Source of the DNA: a virus | Virus genome (UHGV): UHGV-0008471 | Reading direction: 5' to 3' (one strand) | DNA: 31,257 nt | Shown here: one piece after another, positions 15,729 to 24,610 of the stretch | How positions within the stretch are numbered: position 1 is the first letter of the stretch | How the letters are laid out: every line of letters starts with the position of its first letter | Position numbers and translations under genes: made by a program | Notes under the pieces: model-generated | The model's database searches: none | What the model was told of the DNA's origin: nothing | The model's input: the letters and a program-made list of their open reading frames with translations, nothing else

Positions 15729-15913
15729 ACGCCACAATTCAAACGATACCAGAGCTTCTTATCCAGACACGAGGCAATCAGACCGAAGTGGCGAGGATGC
15801 TTTCCTGCGCAAGAGGAACAGTGCTCAAGTACAACCGAGACAGCAAAGGCGAGCGTCATGTAATAGTTAACGGCGTCCTGATGGTCAAACAGGGCAAGAG
15901 GGGAAGACGATGA
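15725..15913 (+). CDS. ninH: NinH-like small DNA-binding protein (62 aa)
   Basis: GNQTEVARMLSCARGTVLKY resembles lambda NinH (Fis-like HTH) as recalled. Confidence 0.7.
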   Translation: MNATIQTIPELLIQTRGNQTEVARMLSCARGTVLKYNRDSKGERHVIVNGVLMVKQGKRGRR

Positions 15914-16533
15914 GACTCGAAAGCGTAGCTAAATTTCATTCGCCAAAAAGCCCGATGATGAGCGACTCACCACGGGCCACGGCTTCTGACTCTCTTTCCG
16001 GTACTGATGTGATGGCTGCTATGGGGATGGCGCAATCACAAGCCGGATTCGGGATGGCTGCATTCTGCGGCAAGCACGAACTCAGCCAGAATGACAAACA
16101 AAAAGCTATCAACTATCTGATGCAATTTGCACACAAGGTATCGGGGAAATACCGTGGTGTGGCAAAGCTTGAAGGAAATACTAAGGCAAAGGTACTGCAA
16201 GTGCTCGCAACATTCGCTTATGCGGATTATTGCCGTAGTGCCGCGACGCCTGGCGCAAGATGCAGAGATTGTCACGGTACAGGCCGTGCGGTTGATATAG
16301 CAAAAACAGAGCAGTGGGGGAGAGTTGTTGAGAAAGAATGCGGAAGATGCAAAGGTGTCGGCTATTCAAGGATGCCAGCAAGCGCCGCATATCGCGCTGT
16401 GACGATGCTAATCCCAAATCTTACCCAACCCACCTGGTCACGCACTGTTAAGCCGCTGTATGACGCTCTGGTGGTGCAATGCCACAAAGAAGAGTCAATC
16501 GCAGACAGCATTTTGAATACGGTCACACGTTAG
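15910..16533 (+). CDS. Q: Late-gene antiterminator Q, lambda type (207 aa)
   Basis: MRLESVAKFHSPKSPMMSD... and zinc-finger CRDCHGTG...CGRCKGVG; essentially the lambda Q sequence as I recall it. Confidence 0.9.
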   Translation: MRLESVAKFHSPKSPMMSDSPRATASDSLSGTDVMAAMGMAQSQAGFGMAAFCGKHELSQNDKQKAINYLMQFAHKVSGKYRGVAKLEGNTKAKVLQVLATFAYADYCRSAATPGARCRDCHGTGRAVDIAKTEQWGRVVEKECGRCKGVGYSRMPASAAYRAVTMLIPNLTQPTWSRTVKPLYDALVVQCHKEESIADSILNTVTR

Positions 16534-16575
16534 CAGCATGATTGCCACGGATGGCAACATATTAACGGCATAATA

Positions 16576-16611
16576 TTGACTTATTGAATAAAATTGGGTA
16601 AATTTGACTCA
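16576..16611 (+). promoter_or_regulatory. Late promoter pR' with overlapping qut site
   Basis: TTGACT (16576-16581), 17-bp spacer, TAAATT (16599-16604); the string TTGACTTATTGAATAAAATTGGGTAAATTTGACTCAACGATGG matches lambda pR' as recalled. Confidence 0.8.
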
Positions 16612-16639
16612 ACGATGGATAAATGCACTCGTTAAATAA

Positions 16640-16675
16640 AGCCCTGAGTTAATAGCTCGGGGCTTTTTGCGTTTT
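16640..16675 (+). terminator. Intrinsic terminator shortly downstream of pR' (tR'-like)
   Basis: AGCCCUGAG-UUAAUAG-CUCGGGGCU (one G-U pair) followed by UUUUUGCGUUUU. Confidence 0.6.
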
Positions 16676-16811
16676 AAGCACGGCCTTTCTGAAAGCACAT
16701 CAAACCAAATACCAGACAGACAAAAATAATCACCTTATCCGCTGTGGCTACGGTGCGGTGTGCTTTGCATAAAAGAAAACCAGCTCAATGGCTGGCTTCG
16801 TGAAAGCGGGT

Positions 16812-16849
16812 GGCAAGAGGTTGCGCTAACAACCTCCTGCCGTTTTGCC
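16812..16849 (+). terminator. Second hairpin plus U-rich element upstream of S (imperfect stem)
   Basis: GGCAAGAGGUUG-CGCUAA-CAACCUCCUGCC then GUUUUGCC; one A/C mismatch in a 12-bp stem. Confidence 0.35.
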
Positions 16850-16966
16850 CGTGCATATCGGTCACGAACAAATCTGATTACTAAACACAGTAGCCTGGAT
16901 TTGTTCTATCAGTAATCGACCTTATTCCTAATTAAATAGAGCAAATCCCCTTATTGGGGGTAAGAC

Positions 16967-17290
16967 ATGAAGATGCCAGAAAAACATGACCTGTTAGCCG
17001 CCATTCTCGCGGCAAAGGAACAAGGCATCGGGGCAATCCTTGCGTTTGCAATGGCGTACCTTCGCGGCAGATATAATGGCGGTGCGTTTACAAAAACAGT
17101 AATCGACGCAACGATGTGCGCCATTATCGCCTGGTTCATTCGTGACCTTCTCGACTTCGCCGGACTAAGTAGCAATCTCGCTTATATAACGAGCGTGTTC
17201 ATCGGCTACATCGGTACTGACTCGATTGGTTCGCTTATCAAACGCTTCGCTGCTAAAAAAGCCGGAGTAGAAGATGGTGGAAATCAATAA
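16967..17290 (+). CDS. S: Holin, lambda S type (107 aa; dual-start Met1/Met3)
   Basis: [41 protein letters not shown]...; class I holin with three transmembrane segments. Confidence 0.9.
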
Positions 17291-17750
17291 TCAACGTAAG
17301 GCGTTCCTCGATATGCTGGCGTGGTCAGAGGGAACTGATAACGGACGTCAGAAAACCAGAAATCATGGTTATGACGTCATTGTAGGCGGAGAGCTATTCA
17401 CTGATTACTCCGATCACCCTCGCAAACTTGTCACGCTAAACCCAAAACTCAAATCAACAGCAGCCGGGCGCTACCAGCTTCTTTCCCGTTGGTGGGATGC
17501 CTATCGTAAGCAGCTTGGCCTGAAAGACTTCTCTCCGAAAAGCCAGGACGCTGTGGCATTGCAGCAGATTAAAGAGCGTGGCGCTTTACCGATGATTGAT
17601 CGCGGTGATATTCGTCAGGCAATTGACCGTTGCAGCAATATCTGGGCTTCACTGCCGGGTGCTGGTTATGGTCAGTTCGAGCATAAGGCTGACAACCTGA
17701 TTGCAAAATTCAAAGAGGCTGGCGGAACGGTCAGAGAGATTGAGGTATGA
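17274..17750 (+). CDS. R: Endolysin, lambda R-type lytic transglycosylase (158 aa)
   Basis: [39 protein letters not shown]... matches lambda R as recalled. Confidence 0.9.
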
Positions 17751-18214
17751 GCAGAGTCACCGCGATTATTTCCGCTCTGGTTATCTGCATCATCGTCTGC
17801 CTGTTATGGGCTGTTAATCATTACCGTGATAACGCCATCGCCTACAAAGAGCAGCGCGACAAAAATGCCAGAGAACTGAAGCTGGCGAACTCGACAATTA
17901 CTGACATGCAGGTGCGCCAACGTGATGTTGCTGCGCTCGATGCAAAATACACGAAGGAGTTAGCTGATGCGAAAGCTGAAAATGATGCTCTTCTGCGGAA
18001 GCTTGATAATGGTGGCAGGGTGCTCGTCAAAGGAAAATGCCCTGTGCCATCCTCTGCCGAAACCTCCAGCGCCTCCGGCATGGGCAATGATGCCACCGTC
18101 GAACTCTCTCCAGTTGCTGGACGAAACGTTCTCGATATCCGGGACGGAATTATCCGCGACCAAACAGCACTGAGAACGCTTCAGGAATACATTAGGACGC
18201 AATGCCTTCGATGA
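17747..18214 (+). CDS. Rz: Rz i-spanin (155 aa) with lambda-like N-terminus and divergent C-terminus
   Basis: N-terminal transmembrane segment and coiled-coil up to about AENDAL resemble lambda Rz; the remainder differs. Confidence 0.8.
17967..18173 (+). CDS. Rz1: Rz1 o-spanin lipoprotein embedded in the +1 frame of Rz (68 aa)
   Basis: Signal peptide plus lipobox VAGC; proline-rich [16 protein letters not shown], parallel to lambda Rz1. Confidence 0.7.
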
Positions 18215-18389
18215 TAGCGATAATTTTACTCATCATCCTTCACATCTGGCTCTGTAGACAGGGTGGTGATCACTTCTGGAGTGAATCCAGATTAAACATC
18301 TCATTGCTGATGCTTGATATTGAGCATCTGGCGCGCGGTAAGGGGCTGCGTTGAGATAAGAGCCAGTCATTACAAATACCAGGATTTAG

Positions 18390-18414
18390 CCTCGCATTCG
18401 CGGGGCTTTTTTAT
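18390..18414 (+). terminator. Intrinsic terminator downstream of the lysis cassette
   Basis: CCUCGC-AUUC-GCGGGG (one G-U pair) followed by CUUUUUUAUAU. Confidence 0.55.
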
Positions 18415-18642
18415 ATCTGCAGTAAACCGCGCATCGCAGCGCGTAACAATCCCGAGTCTTTCAGAAAGCTGAGCCTGAGAACTGCCGTATATGGTGGCGA
18501 CCATCTCGGGGCGGCTTTTCTGTGCGAACAGGCTCATCTTTCTAAAAGGTAAAGACGCAATGAACTACCCAACCGTTGTTAACGATATAGATTCAGAGAC
18601 CTAATTTTTGTAGCAAACAACGATCCGGTTACAGATTCTTTT

Positions 18643-19101
18643 ATGGTGGCAAAAGCATTTGGAAAGCTGCCGAAGAACGTGGTTCGTGACATTGAACGAA
18701 CCATAGAAGCTTGCCCTCCTGAGTTTGATACAAAGCTCAACTTTGAGCTTTGCTATAAAAACAATGAGTTACAGAATGGTAAGCCGCAAAAATTCTACCG
18801 TCTCCGCAAGGATGGGTTGATGCTTTTGGTTATGTCCTACACCAAAAAAGAAGCAATGCGTATCAAAATTGCTTACATCAACGCATTCAACTGGATGTAC
18901 GCCATGCTTCAGGTTGGTCATCGTCAATTTGAAGAAGAGAGAAATGCCGTAATGCTGGAGTACATGAAAGAGAAGGATGTTGCCAGCATGTCAGGCCGCC
19001 TGCTTAATCGCTGGGGAAAAATTAAGAAGCCTCAGCTACTGGCGAGAATTGAACGCCTTGAACAGCACGGGCAAACCGTAATCCCCGGACTCACCAATTA
19101 A
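18643..19101 (+). CDS. Rha-family phage regulatory protein, possibly N-terminally truncated (152 aa)
   Basis: C-terminal part of a Rha-like domain (YRLRKDGLMLLVMSYTKKEAMRIKIAYINAFNWM); no SD before the ATG and no alternative in-frame start back to the stop at 18580. Confidence 0.5.
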   Translation: MVAKAFGKLPKNVVRDIERTIEACPPEFDTKLNFELCYKNNELQNGKPQKFYRLRKDGLMLLVMSYTKKEAMRIKIAYINAFNWMYAMLQVGHRQFEEERNAVMLEYMKEKDVASMSGRLLNRWGKIKKPQLLARIERLEQHGQTVIPGLTN

Positions 19102-19328
19102 CGGCAGTACAGCGAAACAACCCAAGCCAGAAAGTGGGGAAATAACACTGGCAGCCACTGAAAGATGAACCTCCTGCCTTATGGCAAAAAAGATTCTTTG
19201 TGGTGGCGGACTGATGGAAAGACATCGGTTATTGCAGAGACCATTCAATGAGTGGTCTCGACAATGGCTTATACCCTACACGGGATAACTTAACTGATAT
19301 CCCTTTTAACGGATAAACGGAGCCAACA

Positions 19329-19571
19329 ATGGCAGAGATTATTCCCATGACTGAAGAACAGAAATTCCAGTTAGAGATTTACAAGCTGGTCATGAACCAG
19401 AACGCAGCCGCAGAGGAAGCATTTCAGTTCATTGGCACTGACGAACTGAAGCTTGAGCTATTCAAAATTCACTTCCAGTCAGGCGGCGCTAATTCAGATA
19501 TCACGACCCGCACTATCGAAGCGGTGCGTAAATCGAAGGAAGCGTTAGACCTGTTCACCACCGGAGCATAA
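19329..19571 (+). CDS. Hypothetical protein (80 aa) upstream of terminase
   Basis: GGAG SD; helical acidic sequence; no family recognised. Confidence 0.5.
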   Translation: MAEIIPMTEEQKFQLEIYKLVMNQNAAAEEAFQFIGTDELKLELFKIHFQSGGANSDITTRTIEAVRKSKEALDLFTTGA

Positions 19572-19573
19572 AC

Positions 19574-20014
19574 ATGGCGCGCCCAACAAAGTATCAAGAG
19601 GCGTATGCCGAACAGGCACGCAAACTGTGCTTGCTGGGCTACACCGATGCAGAGCTTGCTGATTTCTTCGAAGTCAGTGAGTCAACTATTAACAAGTGGA
19701 AGCTTGATTATCCTGAGTTTTCGGAGTCCATAAAAAAGGGTAAGGCCGTCGCTGATGCAGAAGTTAGTGACCGTCTTTATCAACGCGCTATGGGCTTCGT
19801 GGCTCCAGACATCGATATTCGTGTTATTGAAAACAGAATTGTCGAAACTCCTCTTGAGAAGTATTACCCGCCTGATACAACAGCTGCCATCTTCTGGCTT
19901 AAGAACCGACAGAAGGATAAATGGCGCGACAAGGTTGATCACGAGCTAACAGGCAAAGACGGCGGCGCAATCCAGATTGAAACATCACCGATGAGTACTC
20001 TATTCGGAAAATGA
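19574..20014 (+). CDS. Terminase small subunit (146 aa)
   Basis: Directly precedes and overlaps TerL; C-terminus GKDGGAIQIETSPMSTLFGK matches Sf6-type TerS as recalled; N-terminal HTH-like DNA-binding part differs. Confidence 0.75.
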   Translation: MARPTKYQEAYAEQARKLCLLGYTDAELADFFEVSESTINKWKLDYPEFSESIKKGKAVADAEVSDRLYQRAMGFVAPDIDIRVIENRIVETPLEKYYPPDTTAAIFWLKNRQKDKWRDKVDHELTGKDGGAIQIETSPMSTLFGK

Positions 20015-21426
20015 CCTCGATTAATCCTATCTTTGAACCGTTCATTGAGGCGCATCGCTACAAAGTCGCCAAAGGCGGTCGAGGTAGCGGTAAATCATGG
20101 GCAATTGCGAGACTGCTTGTTGAAGCGGCGCGTCGGCAGCCAGTGCGTATTCTCTGCGCTCGTGAACTGCAAAACAGTATCAGCGATTCGGTAATCCGGC
20201 TGCTTGAAGACACCATAGAGCGTGAAGGGTATACGGCTGAGTTTGAAATTCAGCGTTCCATGATTCGTCATCTCGGGACGAATGCTGAGTTCATGTTCTA
20301 CGGCATCAAAAACAACCCGACGAAGATTAAATCGCTCGAAGGCATTGATATCTGCTGGGTGGAGGAAGCGGAAGCGGTAACGAAGGAATCATGGGATATC
20401 CTGATACCAACCATCCGCAAGCCATTTTCCGAAATATGGGTGAGCTTCAACCCGAAAAACATCCTCGACGATACCTATCAGCGATTCGTAGTAAACCCTC
20501 CCGATGATATTTGTCTGCTGACGGTGAACTACACCGACAACCCGCACTTTCCTGAAGTTCTCCGTCTGGAGATGGAAGAGTGTAAACGCAGAAACCCGAC
20601 ACTGTATCGTCACATCTGGCTTGGTGAGCCAGTAAGCGCAAGTGATATGGCAATCATCAAACGTGAATGGCTTGAAGCTGCAACCGATGCGCACAAGAAA
20701 CTCGGATGGAAAGCGAAAGGCGCTGTTGTCTCTGCGCATGACCCATCAGATACAGGGCCAGATGCTAAAGGTTATGCATCGCGCCACGGTTCGGTAGTTA
20801 AGCGCATTGCCGAAGGCCTGCTGATGGACATCAATGAAGGTGCTGACTGGGCTACTTCGCTGGCGATTGAAGACGGCGCTGACCATTACCTGTGGGATGG
20901 TGATGGTGTTGGTGCCGGGCTACGCAGACAGACAACGGAAGCGTTCTCCGGCAAGAAAATCACCGCCACGATGTTCAAGGGCAGCGAATCGCCATTCGAT
21001 GAAGATGCGCCGTATCAGGCCGGAGCATGGGCTGATGAAGTAGTACAGGGCGACAACGTTCGCACTATTGGCGATGTATTTCGCAATAAGCGAGCGCAAT
21101 TCTATTACGCGCTGGCTGACAGGCTGTATCTGACATATCGGGCGGTTGTTCACGGTGAGTATGCAGACCCCGACGACATGCTGAGTTTCGACAAAGAAGC
21201 GATAGGCGAGAAGATGCTGGAGAAGCTGTTTGCAGAACTGACGCAGATTCAGCGCAAATTCAATAACAACGGGAAGCTGGAGCTTATGACTAAGGTCGAA
21301 ATGAAGCAGAAGCTCGGTATTCCATCTCCTAACCTGGCTGATGCGCTGATGATGTGTATGCATTGCCCGGAGTCGGCTGCGCAACCCGACTATTCCAGTT
21401 ACTCAATTCCTTGTGGTGTAGGTTGA
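20011..21426 (+). CDS. Terminase large subunit (471 aa)
   Basis: Walker A KGGRGSGKSW near the N-terminus; C-terminal nuclease domain; closely resembles Sf6/P22-group TerL as recalled. Confidence 0.9.
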   Translation: MTSINPIFEPFIEAHRYKVAKGGRGSGKSWAIARLLVEAARRQPVRILCARELQNSISDSVIRLLEDTIEREGYTAEFEIQRSMIRHLGTNAEFMFYGIKNNPTKIKSLEGIDICWVEEAEAVTKESWDILIPTIRKPFSEIWVSFNPKNILDDTYQRFVVNPPDDICLLTVNYTDNPHFPEVLRLEMEECKRRNPTLYRHIWLGEPVSASDMAIIKREWLEAATDAHKKLGWKAKGAVVSAHDPSDTGPDAKGYASRHGSVVKRIAEGLLMDINEGADWATSLAIEDGADHYLWDGDGVGAGLRRQTTEAFSGKKITATMFKGSESPFDEDAPYQAGAWADEVVQGDNVRTIGDVFRNKRAQFYYALADRLYLTYRAVVHGEYADPDDMLSFDKEAIGEKMLEKLFAELTQIQRKFNNNGKLELMTKVEMKQKLGIPSPNLADALMMCMHCPESAAQPDYSSYSIPCGVG

Positions 21427-21427
21427 T

Positions 21428-23626
21428 ATGGCAGAAAAAAAGATGACTGACTGGCATCGCAAGGTGCTGTGCAACTTTGATAATGCCTGGTCAGCAACGC
21501 AGGATATGCGTGAGCAGATTATTGAGGCTCAACGTTTCGTCCGGGTATCCGGCGCACAGTGGGAAGGCAGCACAAACGCTGGTTACTCATTTGATGAAGG
21601 CAGGTTTGAGCATTATCCGCGCTTTGAACTGAATAAGATTGCCCGTGAATGTGATCGCATCATTGGCGAGTATCGACAGAATCGCATAAGCGTTAAATTC
21701 AGGCCGAAGGACGATAAGGCATCGGAAGCGTTAGCCGAAAAGATGAACGGCAAATTCCGCGCTGACTATCAGGAAACATCCGGTGGCGAAGCGTGTGATA
21801 ACGCATTTGATGATGCTGTAACGGGAGGATTCGGTTGTTTCCGCATGTGTGCCGATTACGAAGATGAAATGGATCCGAGTAACGAGCAGCGACGCATCAG
21901 CCTTCTTCCTGTTTACGACCCAGCGACATGCGTCTTCTTCGATCAGGACAGCAAGCAATATGACCGCTCTGATGCTATGTGGGCTATGGAAATGTTCTCC
22001 ATGACGCCCAAAGCGTTCGAGGCTGAATACCCTGATTCCATCGCGGCAAGCCTTTCTCGTGATGACACTGGCACTCAATATGACTGGTCAACGCCTGATG
22101 CTATCTATGTTGGTCGCTACTACGAAGTTCGCATAGAGAAGGTGAAGCTCACGGCGTGGCGCAACCCTGTTAGCGGAGAAACGGCAATCTATGATGAAGA
22201 GCAAATCAAAGATATTGTCGACGAGCTAACCGATGGTGCATTCGAACTGATCGGTGAGCGGACAGTGAAGAAACGCAGAGTTTATTGCGGTCTTCTGTCT
22301 GGCGCTGAATGGCTGGAAGAGCCGAAGCGTATTCCTGGCGAACATATTCCTCTCATCCCGGTATATGGGCGTCGCTCATTTGTTGATAATCAGGAGCGAA
22401 TCGAAGGCCACGCAGCAAAAGCGATGGATGCGCAGCGTCTTGAGAACCTGATGGTTTCCATGATTGCAGATAACGCTACTCAGGCTGGCGGTGATGGCAT
22501 TCCTGTAGTTGATGTTGACATGATTCCTGGTACTCTCGCCACTCATTGGGCGGAGCGAAACAAAAAGCGCCCGGCGTTCCTGCCGATGGTCAGTCTGAAA
22601 AACAAAAACGGAGATATTACAGCGCAGGCTCAGGTCAGCAGTTATACGCCTCCGACACAAATGCCTCCTGCTCTTGCCGGGCTATTACAGTACACCGGAA
22701 CGGCTATTCAGCAAATTACAGGTGCGTCGCAGCTTGAGAACATGCCGAGCAACGTCGCTACCGATACCGTTGATAGCATCTTTAACAGGATGGACACGCA
22801 GTCATATATCTACATGGACAACATGGCTAAATCCATGCGTCGCGCTGGCGTTGTGTGGCTTTCTATGGCGCGTGAAGTCTATGGCAGCGATACGCCGATG
22901 CGTATCGTTAATGAGGACGGCAGCGATGACGTGGCGCTGATGACTGGTGAAGTGGTTGACCGTCAGACAGGGCAGGTTATCGCGCTTAACGACCTTTCGC
23001 AGGGTAACTATGAAGTGACTGTCGATGTCGGTCAGTCGTTCGCTACTCGCCGTGATGCAACGGTTAAGTCGTTACTTTCCATGCTGGCACTTATCCCACC
23101 AGGAACGCCGAAGCACGACCTTGTATCGTCGATGATTCTCGACAATATGGACGGCGAAGGGATGGACGACCTGAAAGAATACAACCGCAATCAGTTGCTT
23201 CTGTCTGGAGTTATCAAGCCGAGAACGCCAGAAGAACAGCAGATGGTTGAGCAGGCGAAACAACAACAGGCCAGTCAGCCAGATCCGGCTATGGTTGCTG
23301 CGCAAGGTCAGCTTCTTGCTGGTCAGGCTGAATTGCAGAAAGCGCAGAACGAGCAGGCAGCCATTCAGGTTAAAGCATTCCAGGCACAGACTGATGCTCA
23401 GGTTGCAGCGGCAAACGTTGTGAAAATCCTCGCATCTGCTGATAGCCAGCAGAAATCTGATATCCGCGAGGCTCTGAAACTGCTCGGACAGTTCCAGCAA
23501 CAGCAAGGAGACAATGCCCGTGCTGATGCAGAGCTTGTCCTGAAAAGTCAGGCACAGGGCCATGCGCAGCGCATGGACATCAGCAGCATCCTGCAAAAAT
23601 CAACTCAGCAACAACCACAGCAGTAA
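21428..23626 (+). CDS. Portal protein (P22 gp1 type, 732 aa)
   Basis: Large protein immediately after TerL; Gln-rich helical C-terminal extension typical of P22-like portals. Confidence 0.85.
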   Translation: MAEKKMTDWHRKVLCNFDNAWSATQDMREQIIEAQRFVRVSGAQWEGSTNAGYSFDEGRFEHYPRFELNKIARECDRIIGEYRQNRISVKFRPKDDKASEALAEKMNGKFRADYQETSGGEACDNAFDDAVTGGFGCFRMCADYEDEMDPSNEQRRISLLPVYDPATCVFFDQDSKQYDRSDAMWAMEMFSMTPKAFEAEYPDSIAASLSRDDTGTQYDWSTPDAIYVGRYYEVRIEKVKLTAWRNPVSGETAIYDEEQIKDIVDELTDGAFELIGERTVKKRRVYCGLLSGAEWLEEPKRIPGEHIPLIPVYGRRSFVDNQERIEGHAAKAMDAQRLENLMVSMIADNATQAGGDGIPVVDVDMIPGTLATHWAERNKKRPAFLPMVSLKNKNGDITAQAQVSSYTPPTQMPPALAGLLQYTGTAIQQITGASQLENMPSNVATDTVDSIFNRMDTQSYIYMDNMAKSMRRAGVVWLSMAREVYGSDTPMRIVNEDGSDDVALMTGEVVDRQTGQVIALNDLSQGNYEVTVDVGQSFATRRDATVKSLLSMLALIPPGTPKHDLVSSMILDNMDGEGMDDLKEYNRNQLLLSGVIKPRTPEEQQMVEQAKQQQASQPDPAMVAAQGQLLAGQAELQKAQNEQAAIQVKAFQAQTDAQVAAANVVKILASADSQQKSDIREALKLLGQFQQQQGDNARADAELVLKSQAQGHAQRMDISSILQKSTQQQPQQ

Positions 23627-23716
23627 TTAACCCATAACGTGCAATGGCTGTCTTTATGAGGCCTGGCACCCTATTGCCTTCCGATGGGCTGAACATCGAG
23701 TAAACAGGGGTAACAA

Positions 23717-24610
23717 ATGGACCAGATGGCAGAAAACACACCAGAAGTTGAAATCGAAACCGACGCGTCAGAGCAGATTCCTGATGATGTCGAACTGGCT
23801 GAAGAAGTCGAAACAGAAGATGGCAGTGAGTCCTCCGGCAATGATGCAGAGGAAGCTACTGAAACTGATGACGACGAATCAGAACAGGAATTCTACTTTG
23901 GTGACGAAAAGCTGGATTCGCCAACCAGCGAAGATGGCGCAGAGCATGGACTGGTAAAACACCTGCGCAAGACGATTAAAGAGAAAGACCGTGAGCTGAA
24001 AGAGCTGATGCGTCAGTCTCAGAAACCCGTCGAGCAGCAGCCGGTAATCACTCAACCACCGCGAATGCCAAAACTGGATGATGAGGACATCGGTTTCGAT
24101 GAAGAAATCTACCAGCAACGCATGGCTAAGTGGGCAGAGGATAACGGCAAATACCAGCAACAGGAGATGGCTCGCAAGCAGAAGGAGCAGGAGCTTCAGG
24201 CTGCTTATCAAGAGCGATTATCCAAATATCAGCAACGTGTTAAGGCTCTCAAGGTTCCTGGCTATCAGGAAGCAGAACAGGCCGTACTCGAGGAAATCCC
24301 CATCGAGACACAAAACGCGATCCTGTTTGAGTCAGAGAAGCCGGAAATCGTTGTTCTGGCGCTCGGTCGCAACGCTGAACTGCGCAAGCAACTGGCAGAA
24401 GCTACCAACCCCGTAGCAATTGGTCGTCTGCTGGAACGTATCGAATCGAAGGCCAGAATCATGCCAAAAGCAAAAACCACGGCAGCCACAACCCCGACAG
24501 TTAAGGGGAGCAACGGCGCAGTAATCAATAACCTCGACAAACTGAAAGCCAAGGCGCTGGAAACTGGTGACTGGACGCCGTATTTCGCCGCTAAAAAGGC
24601 AAAAAAATAA
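23717..24610 (+). CDS. Scaffolding protein (P22 gp8 type, 297 aa)
   Basis: Highly acidic N-terminus, long charged helical body and basic C-terminal tail; sits between portal and coat. Confidence 0.8.
   Translation: MDQMAENTPEVEIETDASEQIPDDVELAEEVETEDGSESSGNDAEEATETDDDESEQEFYFGDEKLDSPTSEDGAEHGLVKHLRKTIKEKDRELKELMRQSQKPVEQQPVITQPPRMPKLDDEDIGFDEEIYQQRMAKWAEDNGKYQQQEMARKQKEQELQAAYQERLSKYQQRVKALKVPGYQEAEQAVLEEIPIETQNAILFESEKPEIVVLALGRNAELRKQLAEATNPVAIGRLLERIESKARIMPKAKTTAATTPTVKGSNGAVINNLDKLKAKALETGDWTPYFAAKKAKK

Follow-up and report, generated by a model that had tools for sequence, protein, structure and literature searches.

The phage records closest to the DNA described here are those of Lederbergvirus, namely CUS-3 (a K1-specific P22-like prophage of Escherichia coli RS218), Kapi1, phiv205-1 and HK620, as judged by megablast; the lambdoid siphoviruses (HK97, HK022 and the mEp phages) match it only across the nin–Q–lysis region. 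Two sets of interacting proteins of these phages are of particular concern, the spanins and the terminase. In lambda, the coiled coil CC1 of the i-spanin Rz comprises residues 27–87 (PMC5295617). Small terminase subunits (TerS) share a general plan, with a helix-turn-helix (HTH) at the N-terminus, a helical oligomerisation core, a stalk and a flexible C-terminal moiety, and in lambda and P22 it is the C-terminus that binds the large subunit, TerL (PMC9611059). The DNA in question, UHGV virus genome UHGV-0008471, is a stretch of 31,257 nucleotides, referred to below as the window, and the region under study is the start of its late operon, which runs from the antiterminator gene Q through the lysis genes S, R, Rz and Rz1 to the terminase genes terS and terL. 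An original prediction, made from the sequence alone, had described this region as a lambda-type regulation and lysis block joined to a P22/Sf6-type packaging block, with breakpoints inside Rz and TerS. The breakpoints are there, but the picture of two blocks is misleading, since a long part of the region is uniform with CUS-3, the spanin genes are of the HK620 type, Q is P22-like as well as lambda-like, and accessory genes lie between lysis and packaging. With high confidence, the window represents the left-hand portion of a temperate prophage that is P22-like (Lederbergvirus) and of the CUS-3 subtype, and the late-operon start is built from lambdoid alleles that circulate in enterobacteria, with joints that are old and inherited.

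Sequence comparison

The references were the complete genomes of lambda (NC_001416), P22 and Sf6 (NC_005344) and regions of HK620 (AF335538) and CUS-3 (CP000711); the phiv205-1 record is MN340231. They were compared with the window by blastn, by an identity map in 50-nt bins and by a per-segment table, and joints were located by a maximum-Fisher scan of mismatches. Genes were taken from the list of open reading frames (ORFs), and the Pfam families present in the region are Antiterm, Phage_holin_3_1, Phage_lysis (Rz), Rz1, Phage_pRha, DUF2560 and Terminase_3.

Joints within the late region and their origin

The scan placed joints at positions 15915, 17860, 17992, 18194, 19952 and 21371, with p values from 1.5e-19 to 1.7e-85. 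The first of these is the left edge of Q relative to CUS-3, at the ninH/Q gene boundary (p 8.9e-70). Within Rz, the type shared by CUS-3, Sf6 and P22 is lost at 17860 (p 1.5e-19) and regained at 18194 (p 1.9e-40), and likeness to lambda ends at 17992, with mismatches at 12/245 positions before and 112/224 after (p 6.7e-31). Likeness to Sf6 starts inside terS at 19952 (mismatches 257/417 before, 16/450 after; p 1.7e-85), the corresponding blastn segment beginning at 19926, and the last joint lies near the 3' end of terL (p 6.7e-55). By blastn, lambda matches the window in two stretches, 15900–16633 (lambda 43875–44609, 96.5%) and 16796–17991 (lambda 45015–46210, 97.1%), and no lambda similarity was found 3' of 17991. 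At the joints, identity steps from 94–100% to about 50–60% within a few bases, and each alternative allele is present at 93–100% identity in other phages; these two observations together bear out the predicted recombination breakpoints within genes.

The joints are, however, shared with published phages (CUS-3, HK620, Sf6 and phiv205-1), and are thus inherited instances of the ordinary, already known mosaicism of lambdoid phages. From 18194 to about 20650, a stretch that includes the whole of terS, every 50-nt bin is free of mismatches to CUS-3, a single deleted base excepted, and therefore the joint within terS was inherited and not made in this genome. Uniform similarity to a single reference is absent for lambda, P22 and Sf6 and is found with CUS-3 over this stretch. 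Relative to CUS-3, only two replacements are seen between the start of Q and the portal gene: the segment holding Q and the leader (15915–16795) and a patch in Rz (17860–18194).

These two replacements, together with the finding that no one record holds the whole window, are what would favour a recent and genome-specific origin, in which the region would be a new lambda by P22/Sf6 hybrid carrying newly made hybrid Rz and TerS proteins. Such an origin is nevertheless improbable. The TerS protein is identical to that of CUS-3, and the body of its gene is 100% identical at the nucleotide level in several CUS-3 isolates; the 3' part of Rz is 96–97% identical to HK620, Kapi1 and phiv205-1, and the segment 17840–18214 is 97.6% identical to PhiR70_1 and 92–94% identical to many Escherichia and Salmonella phages. 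In phiv205-1, the genes Q, S, R, Rz, terS, terL and portal all have the alleles seen here. Moreover, the 17860 joint is already annotated in the Sf6 record, where an entry 'bsq7; boundary sequence' at Sf6 37312–37359, inside Rz, corresponds to window 17816–17863 and so ends at the joint.

Less probable still is that the divergent stretches arose in place, through locally accelerated point mutation under diversifying selection on the C-terminus of Rz with Rz1 and on the DNA-binding part of TerS. The TerS proteins of CUS-3 and Sf6 do look like very distant full-length homologues, with Sf6 gp1 ranking first among the fold matches of the TerS model described below, and so would ultimately descend from one ancestor. 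However, identity changes in steps that take only a few bases, is nearly complete on one side of them and shows no gradual decay, the divergent segments have copies of 93–100% identity in phages with other flanks, and the same TerS body is found with unrelated tails and TerL families. It is scarcely credible that the mosaic is a chimera made in assembly from two lambdoid prophages resident together: places like this region number up to 14 per E. coli genome, with a median of 2, a known source of misassembly, and a one-base deletion in a T run of the rha gene could be a sequencing error, but the same joints recur in the independently sequenced CUS-3, HK620, Kapi1 and phiv205-1, and the ORFs across the joints are all intact and in frame.

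Lysis genes and the Rz/Rz1 spanin

The lysis genes of the window are as follows.
16967–17290, plus strand: holin gene S, the allele shared by lambda, Sf6 and CUS-3 (Pfam Phage_holin_3_1; 99% amino acid identity to lambda S, 100% to Sf6 gp60).
17274–17750, plus strand: endolysin gene R, lambda-type (98% amino acid identity to lambda R; PHROG endolysin).
17747–18214, plus strand: i-spanin gene Rz, 155 amino acids, HK620-type allele (Pfam Phage_lysis, E 1e-30, and alignments).
17967–18173, plus strand, +1 frame, wholly inside Rz: o-spanin gene Rz1, 68 amino acids, HK620-type (Pfam Rz1, E 7.6e-19).

The identities of S and R confirm that both are lambda-like, and R gave no hit to P22 gp19. They are not private to lambda, though: over 16796–17860, from upstream of S to nucleotide 114 of Rz, lambda, Sf6 and CUS-3 are all 94–100% identical to the window, with P22 unlike it for R, and HK620 reaches the same range from about 16950 onwards.

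The Rz gene is composed of four segments. The first (17747–17860, the first 114 nt) is common to all types. The second (17861–17991, nt 115–245) is 95% identical to lambda and 89% to HK620, against 61–63% for CUS-3, Sf6 and P22. The third, from 17992 to about 18190, is found in the HK620 type and not in lambda, CUS-3, Sf6 or P22; over nt 246–434 (17992–18180) it is 96% identical to HK620, 97% to Kapi1 and 97% to phiv205-1. The fourth, from about 18194, is again common to Sf6 and CUS-3. As a whole, the Rz protein is 92% identical to that of HK620, as compared with 66% for lambda and 61% for CUS-3.

Rz had been proposed to be lambda-like only in its N-terminal part and to diverge after the start of the coiled coil. 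The first half of this proposal agrees with the protein alignment, in which residues 1–82 are identical to lambda at 76/82 positions and residues 83–155 at 24/73, the latter being identical at 68–70/73 positions in HK620, phiv205-1 and Kapi1. The position needs correction: the break falls at codon 82, which is close to the end of CC1 and just where Rz1 starts. The break that does lie near the start of CC1, at codon ~39, is the joint with the Rz type of P22, Sf6 and CUS-3. The region of the transmembrane domain (TMD) is aligned, and Cys98 and Cys153 are invariant, across the aligned types.

The embedded Rz1 had been expected to differ from that of lambda, as indeed it does: it is an HK620-type allele, distinct from both the lambda and the P22 types. 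It has an MVAGC lipobox with Cys19, a second cysteine at position 27 as in the HK620 protein, and a proline-rich PKPPAPPAW motif, and by hand count it differs from HK620 Rz1 at 5 positions (63/68 identical). As to whether the C-termini of Rz and Rz1 remain a cognate pair, both derive from one HK620-type DNA segment, and the HK620 pair is what is present here, as in the isolates HK620 and Kapi1; this argues that the two are matched by descent, and the pair is probably cognate.

Terminase genes and the TerS tail

The packaging genes, with the two parts of terS given separately, are as follows.
19574–20014, plus strand: terS, small terminase subunit.
19574–19925, plus strand: terS body, codons 1–117, CUS-3-type, with the HTH DNA-binding region and the oligomerisation core (100% nucleotide identity to CUS-3).
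19926–20014, plus strand: terS tail, codons ~118–146, Sf6/HK620-type (87–88% nucleotide identity to Sf6 and HK620).
20011–21426, plus strand: terL, with an Sf6-type body to 21369 and its last 18 codons (from 21371) of the CUS-3 type (Pfam Terminase_3).
21428–23626, plus strand: portal gene.

TerS belongs to PHROG 309 (terminase small subunit) and had no family in Pfam or NCBIfam. Neither blastn nor the 50-nt map showed nucleotide similarity of the terS body to Sf6, HK620 or P22; phiv205-1 has it at 99%. At the protein level (phmmer against the PDB), residues 109–146 match Sf6 gp1 103–140 with E 5e-11, and the first 108 residues gave no sequence match. By sequence, therefore, TerS is not like Sf6 gp1 over its DNA-binding and oligomerisation domains, and only the last 23–38 residues are shared. 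The claim of an Sf6-like C-terminus behind a different N-terminus thus stands, with one correction: the part that differs (residues 1 to ~117) is not the DNA-binding domain alone but spans the oligomerisation core as well.

A model of TerS made with AlphaFold (AF2) from 49 sequences has a mean pLDDT of 74.6 and comprises a three-helix HTH (residues 9–45), a long helix (47–73), a beta hairpin (75–98), a further helix (102–110) and a disordered tail. The top fold matches in the PDB are Sf6 gp1 and a TerS-like protein of phBC6A51, both weak (E 5e-3, TM ~0.4). The predicted fold would support the general TerS architecture and nothing more specific. A protein alignment with Sf6 gp1 shows scattered shared positions (RPxxY, C, STxxxW and F). 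The most fitting view of the CUS-3-type body is that of a highly diverged TerS which keeps the general architecture but stands outside the sequence family of Sf6 gp1.

The Sf6 pac site is said, with reference to Leavitt 2013, to lie in the part of its TerS gene that encodes the DNA-binding domain. Because the P22 pac is likewise inside its TerS gene (PMC9611059), the altered pac specificity proposed for this phage is plausible by analogy. Synonymous-codon conservation over 14 terS homologues has two modest peaks, 19598–19633 and 19706–19741 (0.65–0.82 against a background of ~0.35–0.5); they might mark a pac element embedded in the gene, but biased codon use where Lys and Glu are frequent could account for them as well.

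The relation between the two parts of TerS and its partner was examined in other genomes. Many of the 5802 TerS database homologues keep the first ~120 residues and have unrelated C-terminal tails. A survey then covered 80 loci at which the TerS body is encoded; in 13 of them the body is at least 72% identical to that of the window. The Sf6-type tail (79–100% identity over 29 amino acids) is present in 5 of the 13, and all five have an Sf6-type TerL, at 89% identity in two whole-gene loci and 99–100% over a partial stretch in the other three; the remaining 8 loci lack this tail, and in all eight TerL either does not exceed 55% identity or could not be detected. This shows that the TerS tail tracks the type of TerL and not the TerS body, in keeping with the published binding of TerL by the TerS C-terminus in lambda and P22. 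Bodies at or above 72% identity adjoin Sf6-type TerLs, more distant Terminase_3 TerLs or ORFs without a Pfam terminase match, and more distant bodies (67–70% identical) adjoin Terminase_6-type TerLs. We infer that residues 118–146 form the part that docks to TerL. A further step, which we put forward tentatively and hold to be somewhat less probable than its contrary, is that the CUS-3-type TerS body is a widely mobile pac-recognition cassette that has its own pac within 19574–19925 and is fitted to unrelated TerLs by exchange of a tail of about 25 residues.

The TerS body of ~117 amino acids is widespread, being found in Enterobacterales, in phages of Neisseria, Acinetobacter and Vibrio, in Alphaproteobacteria and in Bacteroidota. 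Six of the surveyed loci (L020–L023, L028 and L029) have it beside Terminase_3, Terminase_6 or Pfam-unmatched partners; in L023, the ORF 3' of terS that was chosen by the script matches a type VI secretion system (T6SS) Tle1-like phospholipase domain and not a terminase. Three other loci (L014–L016) are in metagenome-assembled genomes (MAGs) labelled Collinsella sp. or Bacillota bacterium, and have TerS proteins 99–100% identical and DNA 94–98% identical to the window; contamination during binning is the most likely reason for this prophage region in Gram-positive MAGs.

Over 453 residues, TerL has 99.8% identity to Sf6 gp2, and the terL body is 96–97% identical to Sf6 and HK620 at the nucleotide level. 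A further joint within a gene, absent from the original prediction, was observed at its 3' end, where the last 18 residues switch to the CUS-3 type along with the portal. The portal gene is 98% identical to CUS-3 in nucleotides, and its product is 55% identical to the Sf6 and 35% to the P22 protein. The common switch points to a match between the TerL tail and the portal.

Antiterminator, late promoter and leader

Upstream of the lysis genes are the elements that control late transcription.
15910–16533, plus strand: antiterminator gene Q, the allele shared by lambda, P22 (gp23) and HK620 (Pfam Antiterm, E 1.3e-57).
16576–16604, plus strand: late promoter pR', TTGACT-17-TAAATT, sigma-70-type (promoter scan).
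16634–16795, plus strand: non-lambda patch with a short late leader and the terminator tR' (98% identical to HK140, ECP1, mEp235 and Emek).

At the protein level, Q has 98.6% identity with its lambda counterpart and 96.6% with P22 gp23; at the nucleotide level the gene is 97% identical to lambda, 96% to HK620 and 94% to P22. It had no nucleotide match to CUS-3 or Sf6 in the segment table, both of which carry a phage-21-type Q. Since the protein resembles P22 gp23 almost as closely as it does lambda Q, Q does not mark a junction between lambda and P22. The qut/Q-binding element of lambda, taken as written in the mEp235 record, is present as an exact and unique copy at 16582–16602, inside pR' (TATTGAATAAAATTGGGTAAA), and the pR'/qut segment (16534–16633) is 95% identical to lambda, 95% to P22 and 93% to HK620, and is not like CUS-3 or Sf6.

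The lambda likeness assigned to Q and pR' thus holds, but it does not extend to the leader and tR'. The patch 16634–16795 had no match to lambda, and is 76% identical to P22 and 79% to HK620. In it lies the tR' hairpin (16638–16666; terminator scan), with a 13-bp stem and a T run and a predicted RNA fold of −24.8 kcal/mol (z −4.17), 27 nt 3' of the presumed transcript start. With Q, a promoter-embedded qut and a terminator all recognisable, the lambda-type Q antitermination module appears intact by sequence. The interval between Q and S that remains (16634–16966) is short and has no tRNA genes.

Accessory genes between lysis and packaging

About 1.36 kb of accessory genes, namely a small ORF, rha and a DUF2560 gene, part the lysis genes from the packaging genes.
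18202–18354, plus strand: small ORF of 50 amino acids that overlaps the end of Rz, the counterpart of Sf6 gene 65 and Kapi1_042.
18491–19101, plus strand: gene of a Rha-family regulator, CUS-3 allele, frameshifted (CUS-3 alignment; Pfam Phage_pRha and ORF11CD3).
19329–19571, plus strand: DUF2560 gene, homologue of hkbM and P22 orf80 (Pfam DUF2560).

The segment 18200–18350, with the small ORF, is 98–100% identical to Sf6 and CUS-3. A terminator-like hairpin follows on the plus strand (18388–18407; 8-bp stem with 6 GC pairs, and a T run); it stands within the late operon and is presumably read through by the Q-modified polymerase. The rha gene has lost one nucleotide from a T run at about 18592, where CUS-3, whose gene is otherwise identical, reads GATTTC and the window GATTC. 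The frame shifts after codon ~34, and a remnant ORF of 152 amino acids (18643–19101) starts at an internal Met. CUS-3 is the only record compared that carries this rha allele, and there the TTT run is intact; the deletion could be a true inactivation or a homopolymer sequencing error. The DUF2560 gene is 97–100% identical in P22, Sf6, HK620 and CUS-3 and forms the conserved left flank of the terS cassette.

Setting of the window

The order of genes in the window, as established by tblastn with P22 and Sf6 proteins, is that of P22: early-left recombination genes, c2-cro-c1, replication genes, nin, Q, lysis genes, and terS-terL-portal-scaffold-coat, after which it continues with homologues of gp4/10/26/14/7/20. 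The gp8/10/11 homologues are 97–99% identical to Sf6. A P22-like character had been claimed for the immunity and recombination genes, and amino acid identities to P22 of 92% for c2, 95% for cro, 86% for c1 and 75% for erf are in agreement with it; for gene 24 the match is 57% and spans only 44 amino acids. The structural genes had also been called P22/Sf6-like, which was not sustained, since portal, scaffold and coat are of the CUS-3 type and only the body of TerL is of the Sf6 type. The coat protein is 29% identical to that of P22, and tblastn with the Sf6 coat protein gave no hit in the window. As the portal is 55% identical to Sf6 and the coat 29% to P22, the head genes are of a third, CUS-3 type, the likeness of the coat to CUS-3 being judged from overall CUS-3 coverage and not gene by gene.

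At its left end, positions 95–110 of the window equal the attP core of Sf6 and HK620 (ATGGTGTCCCCTGCAG), and the 94 nt to the left are unrelated to Sf6, so that the window probably begins in host DNA at the attL of the prophage. Sf6 and HK620 integrate at argW. No tRNA genes were found in the whole window by ARAGORN, and an Rfam scan of the whole window found nothing.

How the mosaic may have been assembled and kept functional

The variable segments are flanked by sequence that is conserved across types. To the left of the Rz patch are the first 114 nt of Rz, 94–95% identical in lambda, Sf6, CUS-3 and HK620, and to its right the 3' end of Rz with the gene-65 homologue, 91–100% identical in Sf6, CUS-3 and HK620; the terS body is flanked by the DUF2560 gene on the left and by the terS tail and terL on the right. 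Given such flanks, alleles would be swappable as cassettes, exchanged through homologous crossovers in the conserved sequence. By this route, the region may have been assembled from a lambda/P22-type Q with its matching qut, a short leader and terminator of the HK140 type, lambda-type S and R and HK620-type Rz/Rz1, followed by CUS-3-type accessory genes, a CUS-3 TerS body with an Sf6 tail, an Sf6 TerL body with a CUS-3 tail, and a CUS-3-type portal.

Joints within genes would persist where the cut leaves interacting partners together. For the spanin, one and the same DNA encodes Rz1 and the linker, CC2 and C-terminus of Rz, so that their linkage would be physically guaranteed. The TerS tail would move with the TerL to which it docks, the TerL tail with the portal, and the TerS body probably with its own pac site. 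Should the cassette interpretation of the TerS body prove true, the matching of the TerL tail to the portal would be the same logic taken one step further along the operon. It extends an idea already published for Sf6/P22-like phages and introduces no new principle; the joints that preserve partners, and a short TerS tail that matches the type of TerL, serve as an illustration of how mosaicism stays functional.

Several points weigh against this account of old, inherited joints between functional alleles. The whole window is not found in any one database record: among phage records, coverage of the first 25 kb reaches at most 74%, and over 15800–20100 none of the complete E. coli RefSeq genomes is identical, the closest standing at 97.5%. 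This particular permutation of known alleles may therefore be new. The crossover mechanism, whether homologous in the flanks or illegitimate joining followed by selection, is drawn from the pattern of identity, and the contacts of the TerS tail with TerL and of the TerL tail with the portal are putative in this phage. The TerS model is of moderate confidence, with a pLDDT below 50 in the tail, and resembles the fold of Sf6 gp1 only weakly. Lastly, the frameshift in rha indicates that the prophage is not pristine, and the function of lysis and packaging is assumed from intact ORFs only.

For annotation, the comparison supplies the right reference for each gene, that is, a CUS-3-subtype prophage with an HK620-type spanin and a CUS-3-type TerS; its use beyond annotation is small. 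It also carries a warning that the joints should not be read as recent events.

Comparison with known phages

CUS-3 is 96.7% identical to the window over 16796–24000, and shares with it an identical TerS, the same TerL including the C-terminal tail, the portal type and the rha and DUF2560 alleles. It differs in having a phage-21-type Q (519 nt), another leader and an unshifted rha, and its Rz and Rz1 (145 and 61 amino acids) are of the P22 type from codon ~39 onwards. In phiv205-1, Q (97%), the 3' part of Rz (97%) and terS (99%) are close to the window and the S, R, terL and portal alleles are the same, whereas the leader between Q and S is another one and the rha allele is only 63% identical.

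HK620 resembles the window in Q/pR'/qut (93–96%), in the 155-amino-acid Rz and the 68-amino-acid Rz1, in DUF2560, in the TerS tail and in the TerL body. On the other hand, it has an Sf6-type TerS body with an extra small gene, hkbN, a KilA-type gene in place of rha, an Sf6-type TerL tail and portal, and a leader of 666 bp between the matching blocks as compared with 74 bp in the window. Sf6 has in common with the window S, R, the first 114 nt of Rz, the 3' end of Rz with gene 65, DUF2560, the TerS tail and the TerL body, but differs in its phage-21-type Q with tRNA genes, its P22-type Rz/Rz1 core, and its TerS body, portal, scaffold and coat. Both Sf6 and Kapi1 have tRNA-Asn and tRNA-Thr between Q and S, which the window lacks.

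Lambda is like the window in Q/pR'/qut (96.5%) and, at 97.1%, in the sequence upstream of S, in S and R and in the first 245 nt of Rz. It is unlike it in the C-terminal half of Rz, in Rz1 and in everything downstream, where lambda has bor and the cos-type genes Nu1 and A and the window has headful-type terminase genes. The 405-bp segment of lambda that holds the leader, 6S RNA, tR' and orf-64 is replaced here by 162 bp, and the late leader before tR' would be ~60 nt long, like that of P22 and HK140, whereas lambda makes the 6S RNA of 194 nt.

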